Counted from the first letter of the stretch, positions 3,196 through 36,458 are shown. The stretch: 64,000 nucleotides of DNA from Stutzerimonas stutzeri (GCA_024451105.1 JANGEY010000010.1:13006-77005); one strand, 5' to 3'. A program made the numbers and translations. The notes: a model not told the origin generated them from the letters alone.

Positions 3196-4599
3196 TCAGG
3201 ACAGCTCGCGCGCCATCGCCCGCGCGCTGTGCTGCACGCCGTAGCGACGGCGCGAGTAGGCGTAGAGCAGCAGGCCGATGGCCATCCAGGCGACGAACAG
3301 CGCCCACTCCACCGGCACCAGCGCCGACGGGCTGAACGGCAGGTACATGGCCACCATGGCCAGGCTCAGCAGCACCGCCGCGACGCCGACCGGCATCCCC
3401 GAACGCACCTTGAACGGGCGCGGCATGTCCGGCTCGCGCAGGCGCAGCACCACGAACGACAGGGCGACGAACAGGTAGGCGATGACGATGGCCAGGCTGC
3501 CGGCGTCGACGAACCACACCAGCGCCTTGCGCCCCAGCAGCGGCGCGGCGGTGCTGAGCATGCCGATCAGCAGGATGGCGTTGGTCGGCGTCCTGTAGCG
3601 CGGGTGCAGCTTGCCCAGGAAGGCCGGCAGCATGCCGGCGTGGGCCAGCGCGTAGATCGCCCGGCTGCCGCCGATGTAGAAGGCGTTCCAGCTGGTGACG
3701 ATGCCGGCCAACCCCGCCATGATCATCAGCTTGGCCGCCCAGGGCGCGCCGTAGATGGCCTGCATGGCCTGCGGCACGCTCAGCACCTCGGCACTGATGG
3801 CGCCGGACGGGATCGCCAGGCCGACGCCGAAGATGATCAGCGAGTAGAAGGCCACGGCCATCACCACCGAGAAGATCAGCATCTTGCCGATCTCGCGCGG
3901 CGGCAGATCGACCTCCTCGGCCGCCTGCGGGATCACGTCGAAGCCGACGAACATGAACGGCACCATCATCAGCACGGTGAGCACGCCGGCGCTGCCGCCG
4001 ACCAGCAGCGGGTCCATGTTGCCGGTCTCGCCCTCGAACAGCGCGCCGGTGATGAACATCACGCCGACGGCGAGGATCAGCACGGTCACCACCTTCTGGA
4101 TCAGCGAGGCGGTCTGCACGCCGAAGTAGTTGACCGCGGTCATGGCGATCGAACCAAGCATGCCGACCGCCACCCAGGAGGCCATCACGTCCCAGCCGGC
4201 CACCGTCCACAGGTAGCCGACCTGGTAGCCCGGGATCAGGTTGTCGAGCACGGTGGGCAGCGCCACCGCCTCGAAGGCCACCACCGAGACGTAGCCCAGC
4301 ACGATGGCCCAGGTGCAGACGAAGGAGGCGAAGTGGCCGAGCGCGCGATAGCTGTAGACGTGCTCGCCGCCCGACTGCGGCATGGCGGCGGCCAGCTCGG
4401 CGTAGGTCAGGCCGATCAGCACGATGGCCACGCCGCCGAGCAGGAAAGCGAGGATCGAGCCGAGGCTGCCGGCCGACTGGATCCAGCCGCCGGTCAGGAC
4501 GATCCAGCCCCAGCCGATCATCGCTCCGAACGACAGGGCCAGGACTTCCTTGCGCCCGAGCACGCGGGCAAAGCTGGTTTGAGTGGATGAGACGCTCAT
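3196..4599 (-). CDS. APC-superfamily amino-acid/polyamine permease
   Basis: 467-aa polytopic membrane protein with 12 predicted TM segments and APC-family signature regions. Confidence 0.85.
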   Translation of the reverse strand: MSVSSTQTSFARVLGRKEVLALSFGAMIGWGWIVLTGGWIQSAGSLGSILAFLLGGVAIVLIGLTYAELAAAMPQSGGEHVYSYRALGHFASFVCTWAIVLGYVSVVAFEAVALPTVLDNLIPGYQVGYLWTVAGWDVMASWVAVGMLGSIAMTAVNYFGVQTASLIQKVVTVLILAVGVMFITGALFEGETGNMDPLLVGGSAGVLTVLMMVPFMFVGFDVIPQAAEEVDLPPREIGKMLIFSVVMAVAFYSLIIFGVGLAIPSGAISAEVLSVPQAMQAIYGAPWAAKLMIMAGLAGIVTSWNAFYIGGSRAIYALAHAGMLPAFLGKLHPRYRTPTNAILLIGMLSTAAPLLGRKALVWFVDAGSLAIVIAYLFVALSFVVLRLREPDMPRPFKVRSGMPVGVAAVLLSLAMVAMYLPFSPSALVPVEWALFVAWMAIGLLLYAYSRRRYGVQHSARAMARELS

Positions 4600-8332: not shown

Positions 8333-9187
8333 ATGTCGCTCGCCCACCTGATCACCGCCGAGGAGCTGGCCCTGCGCCTGGGCCAGTCGAACCTGAGGAT
8401 TCTCGACTGCCGCTTCGCCCTCGAAGACCCCGGCTACGGCCGGCGCGTCCACTCCGCCGGGCACCTTCCCGGCGCCTGCTTCGCCGACCTCGAGGCCGAC
8501 CTGTCCGCCCCGATGGTTGCCGGGCGCAGCGGTCGCCATCCGCTGCCCGACGCGCAGCGTCTGTGCCAGCGCCTGCGCCAGTGGGGGGTGGACGACGACA
8601 GCGAGATCGTCCTCTACGACGACGGCCCGGGCGCCTTCGCCGCGCGCGCCTGGTGGCTGCTGCTGTGGCTCGGCAAGCGCGAGGGGGTGTATCTGCTGGA
8701 CGGCGGGCTGAACGCCTGGCGTGCCGCCGGACTGCCGCTGGAGAACGGTGCGCCCCTGCCGACGCCCGGGAACTTCGCCGGGCAGCCGGATGATGGCCTG
8801 GTGATCGAGAGTTCGGAACTGCTGCACCAGTTGGCCGATCCGGCACTCATCCTGATCGACGCCCGCGGATTACCGCGCTTCCGCGGCGAGGTCGAGCCCA
8901 TCGACCCGGTGGCCGGACACATCCCCGGCGCCCAGTGCGCCCCCTTCATCGACAACCTCGACGACCGGGAGCGTTTCCTGCCCGCAGAGGCGCTGCGCCA
9001 GCGCTTCTCCAGCCTGATCGGCTCGAGATCGCCGCAGCGGCTGGTCGCCTACTGCGGCTCGGGAGTCACCGCCTGCCACAACCTGTTCGCCCTGTGTCGG
9101 GCCGGCTATCCGCTGGGCCGTCTGTATGCCGGCTCGTGGAGCGAATGGATCACCGACCCGAGCCGACCGGTGATTCGCGACTGCTAA
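8333..9187 (+). CDS. sseA: 3-mercaptopyruvate/thiosulfate sulfurtransferase (tandem rhodanese)
   Basis: 284 aa with two rhodanese domains. Active-site Cys lies in CGSGVTACHN. SD AAGGAG is upstream of the ATG. Confidence 0.85.
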   Translation: MSLAHLITAEELALRLGQSNLRILDCRFALEDPGYGRRVHSAGHLPGACFADLEADLSAPMVAGRSGRHPLPDAQRLCQRLRQWGVDDDSEIVLYDDGPGAFAARAWWLLLWLGKREGVYLLDGGLNAWRAAGLPLENGAPLPTPGNFAGQPDDGLVIESSELLHQLADPALILIDARGLPRFRGEVEPIDPVAGHIPGAQCAPFIDNLDDRERFLPAEALRQRFSSLIGSRSPQRLVAYCGSGVTACHNLFALCRAGYPLGRLYAGSWSEWITDPSRPVIRDC

Positions 9188-9217
9188 TGGCGTCGGTGCG
9201 CCGCAAAAAACGCAGAC

Positions 9218-9250
9218 AAAAAAAAGGGCGGGGTATGACCCCGCCACTCT
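9218..9250. terminator. bidirectional rho-independent terminator shared by sseA (+) and the RsmZ-like sRNA (-)
   Basis: 7-bp GC stem GGCGGGG/CCCCGCC (9227-9245) with loop TATGA. A8 run at 9218-9225 gives U8 on the minus strand; CTCTTTGTT follows on the plus strand. Confidence 0.7.
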
Positions 9251-9336
9251 TTGTTCCCTCTCACCGTCCTGATGGATCGCCTCCGGCGATGTCCCTACCG
9301 GCCTCCGTGCCGGCTGCGTCACTCCCTGTGCGCAAG
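9218..9336 (-). ncRNA. rsmZ: RsmZ-family small RNA (CsrA/RsmA-sequestering, GacA-dependent)
   Basis: The minus-strand transcript carries at least 6 GGA motifs (CAGGGAG, CACGGAGG, UAGGGACA, CCGGAGGCG, CAGGACGG, GAGGGAACA) and ends in a strong terminator. The core GGGACAUCGCCGGAGGCGAUCCAUCAGGACGGUGA closely resembles Pseudomonas RsmZ as I recall it. Location downstream of rpoS matches Pseudomonas. A TAATAT -10 box lies at 9346..9341 and a GacA UAS upstream. Confidence 0.8.
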
Positions 9337-9340
9337 AGTG

Positions 9341-9346
9341 ATATTA
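9341..9346 (-). promoter_or_regulatory. -10 element (TAATAT) of the rsmZ promoter
   Basis: Minus-strand TAATAT lies about 7 nt upstream of the inferred transcription start of the GGA-rich sRNA. Confidence 0.55.
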
Positions 9347-9506
9347 GCGTCGCCCGGCGCGCCTGCAAGCGCCCCATCCGCCCGTGCAACGCCGGCAGGA
9401 GCTCCTGCCGACAGAAAATAATCCTTACAAAACAACAAGTTGAAAAAACCACTCGAAGAACATGCAAATCGGCCGGCAGGTTTTCCAGCCACCGTCCTAC
9501 ACGGCT

Positions 9507-9524
9507 CGTAAGTCATGGCTTACA
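9507..9524. promoter_or_regulatory. GacA-box upstream activating sequence (TGTAAG-N6-CTTACA type palindrome)
   Basis: CGTAAGTCATGGCTTACA matches the consensus of GacA-dependent sRNA promoters. It lies about 165-180 bp upstream of the inferred rsmZ start, as reported for rsmZ. Confidence 0.7.
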
Positions 9525-9581
9525 CGCACTTGCGAGAATCGAGCGGAACCTGACGAACGCTGCCGGAACCCCAACAACGCG

Positions 9582-9603
9582 AAACCCGGCCAGAGCCGGG
9601 TTT
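9582..9603 (-). terminator. probable rpoS transcription terminator/attenuator hairpin
   Basis: Perfect 9-10 bp stem AAACCCGGC-CAGA-GCCGGGTTT lies 44 nt after the rpoS stop. The 3' tail is only moderately U-rich (UUGUUGGGGUU). Confidence 0.45.
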
Positions 9604-9646
9604 CGCGTGGAGAATCGAACGCTGATCGACAGCGGAAGCCGCGCAC

Positions 9647-10654
9647 TCACTGGAACAGGGCGTCGCTGGACAATCCGTTGTTTTCCAGAATCTCGCGCAG
9701 ACGCTTGAGCGCCTCGACCTGGATCTGCCGCACCCGCTCGCGGGTCAGACCGATCTCCCGGCCCACTTCCTCGAGGGTGCAGCTCTCGTGCCCGCGCAGG
9801 CCGAAGCGGCGGATCACCACCTCGCGCTGCTTCTCGGTCAGATCCGAAAGCCACTGGTCGATGCTGTGGCTGAGATCTTCGTCCTGCAGCAGTTCGCAGG
9901 GATCGGTGGGATGGTCGTCGGTAAGGGTGTCCAGCAGGGTCTTGTCCGAGTCCGGACCGAGCGCCACGTCCACCGAGGTCACCCGCTCGTTCAGGCCGAG
10001 CATGCGCTTGACCTCGGCCACCGGCTTCTCCAGCAGCAGGGCGATTTCCTCGGCAGTCGGCTCGTGGTCGAGCTTCTGGGTCAGCTCCCGCGCCGCACGC
10101 AGGTAGACGTTGAGTTCCTTGACCACGTGGATCGGCAGGCGGATGGTGCGGGTCTGGTTCATGATCGCCCGCTCGATGGTCTGGCGGATCCACCAGGTGG
10201 CGTAGGTGGAGAAACGGAAGCCGCGTTCGGGGTCGAACTTCTCCACCGCCCGGATCAGACCCAGGTTGCCCTCCTCGATCAGGTCGAGCAGGGTCAGTCC
10301 GCGATTGACGTAGCGCCTGGCGATCTTCACCACCAGGCGCAGATTGCTCTCGATCATCCGCTTGCGCCCGGCGGCCTCGCCGCGACGGGCCATGCGTGCG
10401 TAGTGGACCTCCTCCTCGGGACTGAGCAAGGGGGAGAAGCCGATCTCGTTGAGGTACAGCTGGGTGGCATCGAGCGCGCGACTGTAGTCGACGAACTTGT
10501 GCTGACGTCCCGCGCCGACACCGACCGCGCCAGCGAATGCCTCTCCACCGCCCTCGTCCATCTCGGACGCGAGCATCTCCGGAGCGACGTCTATCTCCAG
10601 CAGGAGTACCCCATCGTCGCTGTCAAACTCCGGCGTTGTTTTTGTAATGGCCAT
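9647..10654 (-). CDS. rpoS: RNA polymerase sigma factor RpoS (sigma-38)
   Basis: 335 aa, near-identical in conserved regions to Pseudomonas RpoS ([25 protein letters not shown]..., [22 protein letters not shown]...). Start at [11 protein letters not shown], not at the upstream in-frame extension. Confidence 0.95.
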
Positions 10655-33773: not shown

Positions 33774-34475
33774 TCAGCTTGCGCCCTGCGCCGCCCTGTC
33801 CTTCAGGCGCGCCAGCACGCTGGCGGCGCTGCCGTTGTCGGGAACGATGCCGGCAGCGCGCAGCTTGCTGTCCAGACTCGCCTCCGGCTGCTCGGCGGCC
33901 AGCTCGGCCTCGGCCTCCAGGCGCGCCGCACGTTCGGCCTGGCGCTGCTTGATGCGCTCCAGCGACTCCACCGCGGTGTGCAGCCTGGCCTGCGAGCCGC
34001 CGTGGCGTTGCGCCACCGCCAGCTGGGCGCGCTGCACGCTTTCGGTGGCCTTGACCGTGTCGACCTGCTGCTTGAGACGGCGGATGTGCCCCTCGGCCTG
34101 ACTGACCGCCTGGCGCAGGCGCGCCACGCTGGCGGCGAAACCCGCCGCCTGCTCGCGGTCGGCGGCCAGCTCGGCTTCCAGGGTGGCGATCTTCTCCGCC
34201 ACTTCGGTGGCCAGCGTCTCGTTGTCGGCGGCCAGCGCCTTGAGGGCGTACTGCTCGTACTCGGCGACCTTGACCTCACCCTTGCCCACCCGCTCGCTGG
34301 CCAGTTTCTGCCTGGCCATGATCTGTGCCAGCGCCTCGCGCGACTGGCGCAGCTCCTGGTCTGCGTCGCGGATTTCCTGGTCGAGGATGCGCAGCGCCTG
34401 GCTGTCCACCAGCGCCTCGCCCACCTCGTTGGCGCCGCCGCGCAGGGCGGTCAGCAGCTTGCTCCAGACGTTCAT
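33774..34475 (-). CDS. PspA/IM30 (Vipp1, bacterial ESCRT-III-like) family protein, YjfJ-like
   Basis: 233 aa, all-helical coiled coil starting MNVWSKLLTALRGGANEVGEALVDSQALRILDQEIRDADQ, with PspA-family heptads. The size matches E. coli YjfJ. Its start overlaps the upstream gene's stop (ATGA). Confidence 0.85.
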   Translation of the reverse strand: MNVWSKLLTALRGGANEVGEALVDSQALRILDQEIRDADQELRQSREALAQIMARQKLASERVGKGEVKVAEYEQYALKALAADNETLATEVAEKIATLEAELAADREQAAGFAASVARLRQAVSQAEGHIRRLKQQVDTVKATESVQRAQLAVAQRHGGSQARLHTAVESLERIKQRQAERAARLEAEAELAAEQPEASLDSKLRAAGIVPDNGSAASVLARLKDRAAQGAS

Positions 34476-35104
34476 GCGCGGCTCTCCTCGACAGCGGGAA
34501 GCAGGAACTCCTCGTAGGCCTCGGTGGCCTTGATCACGTTGTCGGCGAGGGTTTCGATCTCGCAGACCACGTCGGCCAGGCTGGCGGCGGCGCTCAGCGC
34601 GCCGAACATCAGGTAGCAGGAGCGACCGTCGGGGAGGGTCTCCAGGCCGATGCTGGAGAGCGGGAACAGCTTGTGGGTGCGCAGCACCTGCTCGTTGAAG
34701 GCCGCCGCATCGCGCACGTCGGCCTGCGGCCAGAGCAGCGCCTCGACCAGGATCTGCTCGCCGACCACGGCGACGAACAGCGGCAGGTCGCCGTAGTCGT
34801 GCAGGGTCAGGTGCAGGCTGGGGTCGGCGCCCTGCAGCAGCTCCATGCTGGCGCGCCCGGCGCGCAGCAGCTCGACGTTGGCCAGCGCTTCGTACAGCTC
34901 GCCGGTGCTCCACAACCTGGGCATGTGCATACCCCCCTCCTCCGTTGAGGCCAAGCCCGCAGCGGGCTGGCGCAGTTTCCGTTCCATGACCGCGAGCGCG
35001 GCGGCGTGCTCGGGCCGAATCCACACTTCCTTCTTCACCAGCCCCTGCTCGCGCAGGCGCTGGCGGTACAGGCGCTGGTAATGGGCCGACGATTTGCTGT
35101 CCAT
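34472..35104 (-). CDS. DUF2170/YjfI-like protein (first gene of module); true start possibly internal (M59/M61)
   Basis: ORF of 210 codons. A strong SD GGAGGAGGGGGG precedes internal ATGs at 34930/34924, giving a 150-152 aa product typical of YjfI. The annotated longest start (35104) has poor SD spacing, yet the N-terminal 58 aa look protein-like. Confidence 0.55.
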   Translation of the reverse strand: MDSKSSAHYQRLYRQRLREQGLVKKEVWIRPEHAAALAVMERKLRQPAAGLASTEEGGMHMPRLWSTGELYEALANVELLRAGRASMELLQGADPSLHLTLHDYGDLPLFVAVVGEQILVEALLWPQADVRDAAAFNEQVLRTHKLFPLSSIGLETLPDGRSCYLMFGALSAAASLADVVCEIETLADNVIKATEAYEEFLLPAVEESRA

Positions 35105-35258
35105 GCCTCGAGGCTAGAGCATCACATGTGTGAAAACCATGTCTTACATGTGGGGTTTTCGCCAAGCCGCGCACAGAATCGACACGAGGCCTCGGTCCCC
35201 TCGCCGCGCCGCGCGCAATCGCCTAGGCTTGGCCATCCCATCGCCCCACGGAGTCGCC

Positions 35259-36458
35259 ATGTCCCTGCCCGTCAAACCCCTCGCCGGCCTCAAGGTCATC
35301 GAGCTCGGCACCCTGATCGCCGGCCCCTTCGCCGCGCGGATCTGCGCCGAGTTCGGCGCCGAAGTGATCAAGATCGAGTCGCCCGACGGCGGCGATCCAC
35401 TGCGCAAGTGGCGCAAGCTGTACGAGGGCACCTCGCTGTGGTGGTTCGTGCAGGCGCGCAACAAGCAGTCGCTGACCCTCAACCTCAAGCACCCCGAGGC
35501 GCGCGAGATCCTCGAACAGCTGGTGACCGAGGCGGACATCGTCATCGAGAACTTCCGTCCCGGCGTGCTGGAGAAGCTCGGCCTCGGCTGGGAACGGCTG
35601 CACGCGCTCAACCCGAAGCTGGTGATGGTACGCCTGTCCGGCTTCGGCCAGAGCGGACCGCTGAAGGACCAGCCGGGTTTCGGCGCGGTCGGCGAGTCGA
35701 TGGGCGGGCTGCGCTACATCACCGGCTTCGCGGACCGCCCGCCGGTACGCACCGGCATCTCCATCGGCGACTCGATCGCCGCGCTGTGGGGGGTGATCGG
35801 CGCGCTGATGGCGCTGCGCCACCGCGAGGTCAACGGCGGCCGCGGCCAGGTGGTCGACGTGGCGCTGTACGAGGCGGTGTTCGCCATGATGGAGAGCCTG
35901 GTGCCGGAGTTCGACGTGTTCGGCTTCATCCGCGAGCGCACCGGCAACATCATGCCCGGCATCACCCCCTCCTCCATCCACACCAGCGCCGACGGCAGGC
36001 ACGTGCAGATCGGCGCCAACGGCGACGCGATCTTCCGGCGCTTCATGCTGGCGATCGGCCGCCACGACCTGGCCGAGGATCCGTCCCTGGCCGACAACGC
36101 CGGGCGCGATGCGCGGCGCGACGAGCTGTACGGGGTGATCGACCGCTGGGTGCAGTCGCTGCCGCTGGATACGGTGCTGGCGGTGCTCGCCCAGGCCGAG
36201 GTACCGGCCAGCCGCATCTACAGCGTCGAGGACATGTTCGGCGACCCGCAGTTCCTCGCCCGCGACATGCTGCAGAAGGCGAAGCTGCCCGATGGCCGGG
36301 AATTTCGCATGCCCGGCATCGTGCCGAAACTCTCCGAGACGCCCGGCGGCACCGAATGGATCGGCCCGCAGCTGGGCGAGCACACCGCGGCGATCCTCGA
36401 ACGGCTGGGCTACGATGCCGGACGCATCGCCGCGCTCAAGGCGGCCGGCGCGGTGTAG
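35259..36458 (+). CDS. CoA-transferase family III (CaiB/BaiF) protein
   Basis: MSLPVKPLAGLKVIELGTLIAGPFAARICAEFGAEVIKIE... is the canonical family III N-terminus. The conserved catalytic Asp region is present. Confidence 0.85.
   Translation: MSLPVKPLAGLKVIELGTLIAGPFAARICAEFGAEVIKIESPDGGDPLRKWRKLYEGTSLWWFVQARNKQSLTLNLKHPEAREILEQLVTEADIVIENFRPGVLEKLGLGWERLHALNPKLVMVRLSGFGQSGPLKDQPGFGAVGESMGGLRYITGFADRPPVRTGISIGDSIAALWGVIGALMALRHREVNGGRGQVVDVALYEAVFAMMESLVPEFDVFGFIRERTGNIMPGITPSSIHTSADGRHVQIGANGDAIFRRFMLAIGRHDLAEDPSLADNAGRDARRDELYGVIDRWVQSLPLDTVLAVLAQAEVPASRIYSVEDMFGDPQFLARDMLQKAKLPDGREFRMPGIVPKLSETPGGTEWIGPQLGEHTAAILERLGYDAGRIAALKAAGAV

Follow-up and report, generated by a model that had tools for sequence, protein, structure and literature searches.

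The question raised by this locus is what lies between rpoS and the convergently transcribed gene that follows it. The window, by which we mean the whole 64-kb stretch of DNA that was analysed, has a G+C content of 69.3% on average and contains the following arrangement:

8333-9187, plus strand: gene of a two-domain rhodanese sulfurtransferase (two stretches matching Pfam Rhodanese), convergent with rsmZ
9188-9646: intergenic region of 459 bp between the stop of the rhodanese gene and the stop of rpoS
9218-9334, minus strand: rsmZ small RNA of 116-117 nt, whose predicted start is 9334 (UGCGCAC...) and which ends within the U8 tract at 9225-9218
9647-10651, minus strand: rpoS, located upstream of rsmZ and co-oriented with it, with an open reading frame extendable to 10732

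The earlier note had proposed that the gap, taken there as about 460 bp, is not empty and carries a complete RsmZ locus downstream of rpoS. The gap indeed holds rsmZ together with its promoter, and all the claimed elements were found in the sequence at the places given. RsmZ is a well-known small RNA of Pseudomonas that sequesters the translational repressor RsmA. Our answer, to which we assign a probability of roughly 0.93, is that the feature is an rsmZ orthologue, that is, an untranslated small RNA of the Gac/Rsm pathway serving as a protein sponge. It is a known RNA family at a known locus, an ordinary copy of something already known.

The RpoS protein matches the NCBIfam equivalog NF004207 with 516 bits (cutoff 394) and contains the Pfam domains of the sigma-70 regions 1.2, 2, 3, and 4. 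A gene for NlpD is found upstream of rpoS in the window, and rsmZ starts 312 nt past the rpoS stop on the same strand. On the other side, the rhodanese gene fills the place that fdxA takes in most pseudomonads. A flanking sulfurtransferase gene had been claimed and is present, but the name sseA given to it is loose, the protein reaching 140 bits against the NCBIfam model of 3-mercaptopyruvate sulfurtransferase, which is under the cutoff of 250. Public sources speak of a sulfurtransferase, and the protein is 100% identical to the NCBI entry 'sulfurtransferase [Pseudomonas stutzeri]'.

An Rfam match to RsmZ had been predicted for the minus strand at about 9218-9336. The scan returned PrrB_RsmZ (RF00166) at 9219-9334 on the minus strand with 78.7 bits (gathering threshold 44, E 3.6e-16). 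The alignment spans model positions 1-133 of 133, and the GGA-rich minus-strand RNA, for which about 117 nt had been estimated, is a full-length member of the family. RF00166 is the sole Rfam match at gathering level in the whole 64 kb, in a scan that gives only the best family per clan; RsmY, RsmX, and RsmZ together belong to clan CL00106. With 78.7 bits the window has the lowest score among 13 rsmZ genes (the other 12 loci score 80.9-129.5 bits) because of a deletion of 16-18 nt and a drift in G+C. A covariance model built in this analysis, called R1, scores the window RsmZ with 92.5 bits.

The sequence of rsmZ on the RNA strand is UGCGCACAGGGAGUGACGCAGCCGGCACGGAGGCCGGUAGGGACAUCGCCGGAGGCGAUCCAUCAGGACGGUGAGAGGGAACAAAGAGUGGCGGGGUCAUACCCCGCCCUUUUUUU. 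Its minimum free energy (MFE) structure has -50.4 kcal/mol (z -3.64), none of 200 shuffled sequences folds equally well, and the fold consists of four stem-loops and a terminator with the GGA motifs distributed as follows:

9315-9334, minus strand: stem-loop SL1 (RNA positions 1-20), loop AGGGA with GGA number 1 (RNA position 10)
9297-9314, minus strand: SL2 (RNA positions 21-38), 6-bp stem and hexaloop ACGGAG with GGA number 2 (position 29)
9292-9294, minus strand: GGA number 3 (RNA position 41) in the SL2-SL3 junction
9276-9290, minus strand: SL3 (RNA positions 45-59), AUCGCC-GGA-GGCGAU with GGA number 4 (position 51)
9262-9274, minus strand: SL4 (RNA positions 61-73), CAUC-AGGAC-GGUG with GGA number 5 (position 66)
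9255-9257, minus strand: GGA number 6 (RNA position 78) in the single-stranded stretch GAGAGGGAACA ahead of the terminator
9218-9252, minus strand: intrinsic terminator of rsmZ, a G+C stem at 9227-9245 (8 pairs, 7 of them G-C) with an A-U extension, followed by U8 at 9225-9218

Six or more GGA motifs had been announced, and the RNA strand contains exactly six. All six, including number 3 in the junction, are unpaired in both the MFE and the consensus structure, four being located in hairpin loops and two in linkers. The opposite strand of the same region has one GGA. Over the window the mean is 1.5 GGA per 116 nt, and six are reached in only 0.44% of the 116-nt windows. Against dinucleotide-preserving shuffles of the RNA itself the count is not significant (mean 4.6, with six or more in 1307 of 5000 shuffles). 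Therefore, the evidence rests on the placement of the motifs and not on their number. In SL1, the Rfam alignment has two non-standard pairs; seven pairs are formed instead in a register in which one A is bulged. SL2 is the high-affinity RsmE site in the RsmZ of P. protegens (PMC12047976), and the J2/3 site of P. aeruginosa, which is the equivalent of GGA number 3, binds RsmA (bioRxiv 10.1101/2022.11.16.516715). Most other rsmZ genes have an extra 16-18 nt with two GGA motifs in the segment from SL4 to the last GGA.

The terminator corresponds to the GC stem with U8 that had been described, the tract being read as eight T at 9225-9218. When both strands were scanned for terminators, the same hairpin was also found on the plus strand, where its tail is ACTCTTTGTT. 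In this direction it follows the sulfurtransferase stop by 40 nt, and no other terminator-like structure is present at this place. It is plausible that the hairpin of rsmZ also terminates the convergent sulfurtransferase transcript and thus acts as a shared bidirectional terminator. The T-tract that follows the hairpin on the plus strand is not continuous (ACTCTTTGTT), and termination of the sulfurtransferase transcript at this site may therefore be inefficient.

The fold was compared with those of other RpoS loci. Relatives of RpoS were taken with one genome per species, which gave 80 loci. Of 16 loci scanned with Rfam, 12 have rsmZ 200-400 nt past rpoS and in the same orientation. The R1 model, built from the Rfam-found rsmZ loci plus the window, finds rsmZ after rpoS at 44 of the 80 loci, each of them Pseudomonas-like (L001-L055), and finds none among the Endozoicomonas, Cellvibrionaceae, Marinobacter, and similar RpoS loci of the 80. 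The comparison set comprised the 44 rsmZ loci downstream of rpoS and two clade relatives that were retrieved separately, and the structure alignment contains 46 hits, namely 45 rsmZ sequences and one spurious weak match in L028. In these 46 rows, whose fitting to the R1 model favours the structure, 97.5% of the alignment cells form standard pairs and 27 of the 33 pairs have changes on both sides. The observed values were reached by none of 500 shuffles, and slid partners pair at 43-58%. A separate MAFFT/RNAalifold run gave compensatory changes in 20 of the 33 pairs. By helix, such changes were found in five of the six pairs of helix 1 (SL1), in all six of helix 2 (SL2), in all five of helix 3 (SL3), and in nine of the 12 pairs of helix 5 (the terminator), and helix 4 (SL4) is 100% paired over the alignment. 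Each helix of the window RNA has its counterpart in the alignment with the rsmZ genes found after rpoS.

The remainder of the intergenic region belongs to the promoter of rsmZ and to the end of rpoS, and the elements are, in the order of increasing distance from the RNA:

9341-9346, minus strand: -10 element TAATAT (-12 to -7), as read from the sequence
9363-9368, minus strand: -35-like TTGCAG, separated from the -10 element by 16 nt and agreeing with TTGACA at three of six positions
9400-9470: A+T-rich spacer of 38-45% G+C with an IHF-like TTTCAACTTGTTG at 9445-9433 (minus strand), about -111 to -99
9496-9501, minus strand: third GacA-type half-site TGTAGG, 5 bp promoter-proximal to the upstream activating sequence (UAS)
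9507-9524: GacA box (UAS), CGTAAGTCATGGCTTACA, which reads TGTAAGCCATGACTTACG on the rsmZ strand
9577-9608, minus strand: terminator-like hairpin of rpoS, a 14-bp stem CGCGAAACCCGGCU...GCCGGGUUUCGCG followed by UUGUUGGGG

The TAATAT that had been pointed out lies at 9346-9341 on the minus strand, six bases 5' of the predicted RNA 5' end. An alignment of 380-400 nt of promoter sequence from 13 loci consists of islands of conservation amid a free-running spacer. Invariant in it are the T, A, A, and T of TA.TAT and the TTG at -34 (T233, T234, G235), and TA(A/G/C)TAT is present in 44 of 45 loci. A scan for consensus sigma-70 promoters reported no promoter at 9000-9800, because the -35 hexamer matches at three of the six positions only. 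Phylogenetic conservation points to a promoter of a weak sigma-70 type.

The GacA box departs from TGTAAGN6CTTACA at a single position, and the expectation for sites with up to two mismatches is 0.18 per window. Relative to the 5' end of the RNA the box extends from -173 to -190 with the centre at -181; the distance of 165-180 bp claimed for the palindrome holds if counted from the -10 element. The box aligns with the boxes of the 12 other rsmZ promoters, and in 43 of 45 rsmZ loci the best GacA box is centred at -168 to -182. Scanning 45 to 47 rsmZ promoters, we found the RNA, TA(A/G/C)TAT, TTG, and the GacA box kept in register. Between box and promoter the G+C content falls to 38% (9400-9459), and nearly every locus has an A+T-rich trough at -110 to -130. 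Within this A+T-rich stretch AA-N5-TG is conserved over the 13 promoters, and an IHF-like core at -110/-111 is present in 12 loci. In the window, TTTCAACTTGTTG has one mismatch to the IHF consensus WATCAANNNNTTR.

The third half-site recurs as well. In the alignment of 13 promoters it shows up as a conserved GTA.G element directly behind the GacA box. Of 46 rsmZ promoters, 44 carry YGTARG on the promoter side of the UAS at a distance of 4-5 bp, at a background of 0.001 per position. The literature searched gave no description of this half-site, which may already be described in the primary promoter papers. For the other elements, the promoter layout in the window agrees with the published descriptions. 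The 18-bp UAS is essential for activation by GacA and is located at -196 for rsmZ in P. aeruginosa and near -75 for rsmY, MvaT/MvaU bind the A+T-rich region of the rsmZ promoter in P. aeruginosa, and two IHF sites are known in the A+T-rich rsmZ region of P. protegens (PMC4950607). Both the 18-bp UAS and the gene order rpoS-rsmZ-fdxA have been published (PMC4353343, PMC1488887).

Upstream of all these elements, the hairpin of rpoS (-43.2 kcal/mol, z -3.3) separates rpoS from the rsmZ promoter. Its T-tract is imperfect and it was not flagged by the terminator scan. A CCCGGC...GCCGGG hairpin after rpoS is kept in most of the aligned loci. With this conserved hairpin at 9577-9608, rsmZ is therefore a separate transcription unit.

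The window RsmZ is special in its length and in its downstream neighbour. It is the shortest among the loci of the scan for box distances (L081, which was added later, has 114 nt) and lacks 16-18 nt, including two GGA motifs, from the segment that joins SL4 to the last GGA. A short RsmZ of 114-118 nt with the same deletion is common to the window, L001 (a soil MAG), L081 (Geopseudomonas aromaticivorans MAP12), and L082 (Pseudomonas sp. GCM10022188). Downstream of rpoS, at least 54 of the 80 loci carry fdxA-mutS. Convergent fdxA, then mutS, is a common neighbourhood for the family but no defining trait of it, and tblastn with the L007 proteins found neither fdxA nor mutS in the window. The order rnd, rhodanese gene, rsmZ, rpoS, nlpD, pcm is found in L081, L082, and the window, and L001 also has the adjacency of rhodanese gene, rsmZ, and rpoS. 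The relatives of the rhodanese in MAP12, GCM10022188, and Zestomonas share 78%, 75%, and 72% identity with it, respectively. In Zestomonas, the rhodanese gene adjoins rnd but sits away from rpoS. Based on the shared gene order, the short RNA, and the layout in Zestomonas, one rearrangement and one deletion in the RNA therefore mark the clade, and the breakpoint of the rearrangement is just beyond the rsmZ terminator. The four clade members have preserved the RNA via compensatory substitutions, and those in SL3 read AUCGCC/GGCGAU versus AUCAC/GUGAU versus CACCGC/GCGGU.

A deletion and a breakpoint could also be the signs of a gene in decay. If the window rsmZ were a non-functional relic at the breakpoint that had lost 16-18 nt and two GGA motifs, this would fit its Rfam score, the lowest of the rsmZ genes scored, and the broken synteny immediately downstream. 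However, the short form has been retained in four diverged genomes, in which the neighbouring rhodanese is just 75-78% identical, the helices persist through compensatory changes, and the UAS, the third half-site, the TTG, and TAATAT are intact. The RsmZ of P. aeruginosa functions with six GGA sites (bioRxiv 10.1101/2022.11.16.516715). That RNA and promoter have been kept since the rearrangement, with compensatory changes, argues against decay, which we regard as improbable. A mix-up within the RNA clan is slightly less probable still. RsmY and RsmX share with RsmZ the architecture of GGA loops, the GacA box, and the Rfam clan CL00106, of which the scan shows the best family only. This best family is PrrB_RsmZ over the full length, though, and the position directly after rpoS is that of rsmZ (PMC1488887). 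In addition, the GacA box at -181 is placed as in rsmZ and not near -75 as in rsmY (PMC4950607), and the RNA aligns helix for helix with those rsmZ genes that follow rpoS.

About as improbable as a confusion with RsmY or RsmX is that the RNA derives mainly from read-through and processing of the rpoS mRNA, as a small RNA of the 3'-UTR, instead of from its own promoter. The orientation of rsmZ is that of rpoS at a distance of just 312 nt, RsmW of P. aeruginosa is an Rsm RNA derived from a 3'-UTR (PMC4950607), and the imperfect T-tract of the rpoS hairpin together with its absence from the terminator scan would suit such an origin. Against it stand the strong 14-bp stem of this hairpin, the conserved -10 and -35 elements and the GacA box at a fixed distance, all between hairpin and RNA, and the own GacA-dependent promoter of rsmZ in other pseudomonads (PMC4950607). 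The chance that the region codes for protein is next to nil. The mechanical list of open reading frames does contain 9261-9467 (68 aa, minus strand), 9319-9516 (65 aa, minus strand), and 8935-9708 (257 aa, plus strand), but a window of 69% G+C yields overlapping spurious reading frames everywhere. The indels of the relatives in this region are not multiples of three, conservation is limited to the RNA and the promoter motifs, and the RNA model accounts for it fully. An rsmZ orthologue transcribed from its own promoter is thus the reading that we follow.

A second Rsm-type RNA in the window was considered and rejected. The only other site resembling a GacA box (35131-35148, two mismatches) adjoins minus-strand sequence dense in GGA (34907-35055) in a layout like that of rsmY, but this sequence forms the beginning of a coding reading frame (MDSKSSAHYQRLYRQRLREQG...), and no Rsm family was detected at 34300-35700 in an Rfam scan with permissive settings. 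The roughly 25 other stretches merged from GGA-dense 116-nt windows are all inside long reading frames and have no Rfam match.

By homology to rsmZ of P. protegens and P. aeruginosa, transcription of the window rsmZ would depend on GacA, and phosphorylated GacA would bind the box at 9507-9524. Bending of the A+T-rich spacer by IHF and/or H-NS-like MvaT/MvaU may then enable GacA to switch on the promoter when cell density is high: the bendable spacer would bring phosphorylated GacA to the weak sigma-70 promoter, and the RNA would accumulate. The conserved GGA loops and the homology suggest that the RNA binds RsmA/RsmE via its GGA motifs. These sites would pair into clamps, each taking up one RsmA/RsmE homodimer. 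In P. aeruginosa RsmZ, six sites correspond to three clamps and three RsmA dimers (bioRxiv 10.1101/2022.11.16.516715). The six GGA sites of the window RNA may likewise accommodate about three dimers, as in the RsmZ-RsmA3 complex. P. protegens RsmZ (127 nt) has eight GGA, of which four are in loops and four single-stranded, and takes up four to five RsmE dimers (PMC12047976). RsmA would thereby be titrated off the ribosome-binding sites of its target mRNAs, and translational repression would be relieved. A tblastn search with gacA and rsmA queries gave no match in the 64-kb window, and the presence of the RsmZ partners is therefore assumed.

A doubtful extension, which we mention as a joint proposal of two parts, is that YGTARG reflects a larger GacA assembly or a second regulator, and that the shared hairpin couples sulfur metabolism to the Rsm output. 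If the proposal were true, a GacA assembly above the dimer or a second regulator recognising the same hexamer would explain how rsmZ, unlike rsmY, is driven from -180. In the Geopseudomonas-like clade, read-through past the shared hairpin from either side would then produce antisense RNA against the other gene.

The locus is of little importance beyond the correct annotation of rsmZ. Region 9188-9646 should be read as an RNA gene with a long promoter, and neither as an empty spacer nor as overlapping spurious reading frames. The organism, a relative of Geopseudomonas with 69% G+C that was deposited as Pseudomonas stutzeri, almost certainly uses a post-transcriptional switch of the Gac/Rsm type. 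The short RsmZ with six GGA and the junction of rpoS-rsmZ with the rhodanese gene are useful lineage markers, and the conserved third half-site offers a cheap hypothesis for studies of GacA binding.

Compared with known systems, the window locus resembles the rsmZ of P. protegens CHA0 and P. fluorescens in its location directly behind rpoS in the same orientation, the rho-independent terminator, the GGA in the loops of SL1-SL4 and in the SL2-SL3 junction, and the promoter with an 18-bp GacA UAS about 180 bp upstream, an A+T-rich spacer containing an IHF-type site, and TA.TAT (PMC4353343, PMC4950607, PMC12047976). It differs in being shorter (116 nt versus 127-133 nt), in having six GGA versus eight or nine, and in lacking the segment from SL4 to the last GGA with its two single-stranded GGA. 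Its G+C content is 64% versus about 50%, and its downstream neighbour is the rhodanese gene and not fdxA. By published description, P. aeruginosa PAO1 RsmZ is alike in its six GGA sites and three RsmA-dimer clamps (bioRxiv 10.1101/2022.11.16.516715) as well as in being flanked by rpoS and a convergent gene and in having a distant GacA box and an A+T-rich spacer (PMC4950607; PMC1488887). The sixth site, likened by description only, is in the loop of SL5 in P. aeruginosa whereas it is predicted to be single-stranded in the window, and the downstream neighbour is again fdxA and not the rhodanese gene. RsmY (RF00195) and RsmX are GacA-activated, GGA-rich sponges for RsmA/RsmE of the same Rfam clan, but they are found at other genomic loci, differ in details of the fold, and in the case of rsmY have the box near -75 (PMC4950607). 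The more distant CsrB and CsrC of Enterobacteria have no sequence homology to RsmZ, belong to a different Rfam family, are about 250-370 nt long with 9-22 sites, and have no link to rpoS. Nevertheless, they work in the same way, in that multiple GGA loops sequester CsrA dimers and that their transcription is driven by UvrY/BarA, of which UvrY is the orthologue of GacA (PMC1488887).

The upstream region of rsmZ, the Gac/Rsm small RNA gene on the minus strand downstream of rpoS, contains two further elements in addition to its 18-bp GacA box, and one sequence resembling this box is found elsewhere in the window:

9496-9501, minus strand: third GacA-type half-site YGTARG (TGTAGG in the window), from the promoter comparison
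9433-9445 (about -111 to -99), minus strand: IHF-like sequence TTTCAACTTGTTG within the A+T-rich spacer
within 35100-35160: GacA-box-like sequence CACATGTGTGAAAACCATGTCTTACATGTG with two mismatches, flanked by ACATGTG repeats

In the comparison of the window with the rsmZ promoters from the RpoS loci L001-L055, L081, and L082, YGTARG is present 4-5 bp promoter-proximal of the GacA box in 44 of 46 rsmZ promoters, while its background in the remainder of the same upstream regions is 0.001 per position. Many rsmZ promoters also keep the CAA-N4-TTG core of the IHF-like sequence at an unchanged distance. The GacA-box-like sequence CACATGTGTGAAAACCATGTCTTACATGTG is located about 30 nt upstream of a minus-strand ORF starting at 35103 (MDSKSSAHYQRLYRQRL...). 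Because an Rsm RNA was not found at this site (35100-35160), CACATGTGTGAAAACCATGTCTTACATGTG is probably an operator for some other regulator.

The Pseudomonas typographi rsmZ (L054, 5203-5326) scores only 40.6 bits with R1, the covariance model built from the Rfam-detected rsmZ loci and the window, and is not reported by the Rfam family PrrB_RsmZ (RF00166) at the gathering threshold. It contains five GGA motifs, and a recognisable GacA box was not found in the 320 nt searched. Given the low score, the five motifs, and the missing box, this gene may have degenerated or been rewired. In the loci L008 and L018, rsmZ is found 1.6 kb and 0.86 kb past rpoS, respectively, so the two genes have an insert between them. 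Seven further Pseudomonas loci (L013, L019, L020, L026, L027, L029, and L049) have neither rsmZ nor fdxA nor mutS within 4 kb past rpoS.

In the window, synteny is interrupted immediately past rsmZ (8333-9187 and upstream), where a rhodanese sulfurtransferase gene and rnd take the place of the usual fdxA-mutS, neither of which was found across the whole 64 kb. The rhodanese neighbour is shared with the soil MAG L001, Geopseudomonas aromaticivorans MAP12 (L081), and Pseudomonas sp. GCM10022188 (L082), and in the latter two rnd adjoins the rhodanese gene. In Zestomonas thermotolerans the rhodanese gene is close to rnd and distant from rpoS. In L082, the heptamer CTTCCTG is repeated in a long tandem array (about 3870-4040) that occupies the gap separating the rhodanese gene from the rsmZ terminator.

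The whole window has a G+C content of 69.3%, and its RpoS shares only 82-83% identity with RpoS of Stutzerimonas species. Its sulfurtransferase nevertheless shows 100% identity to a protein that NCBI labels Pseudomonas/Stutzerimonas stutzeri. Judged from these sequences the source genome is probably misnamed, because the closest relatives are Geopseudomonas-like.
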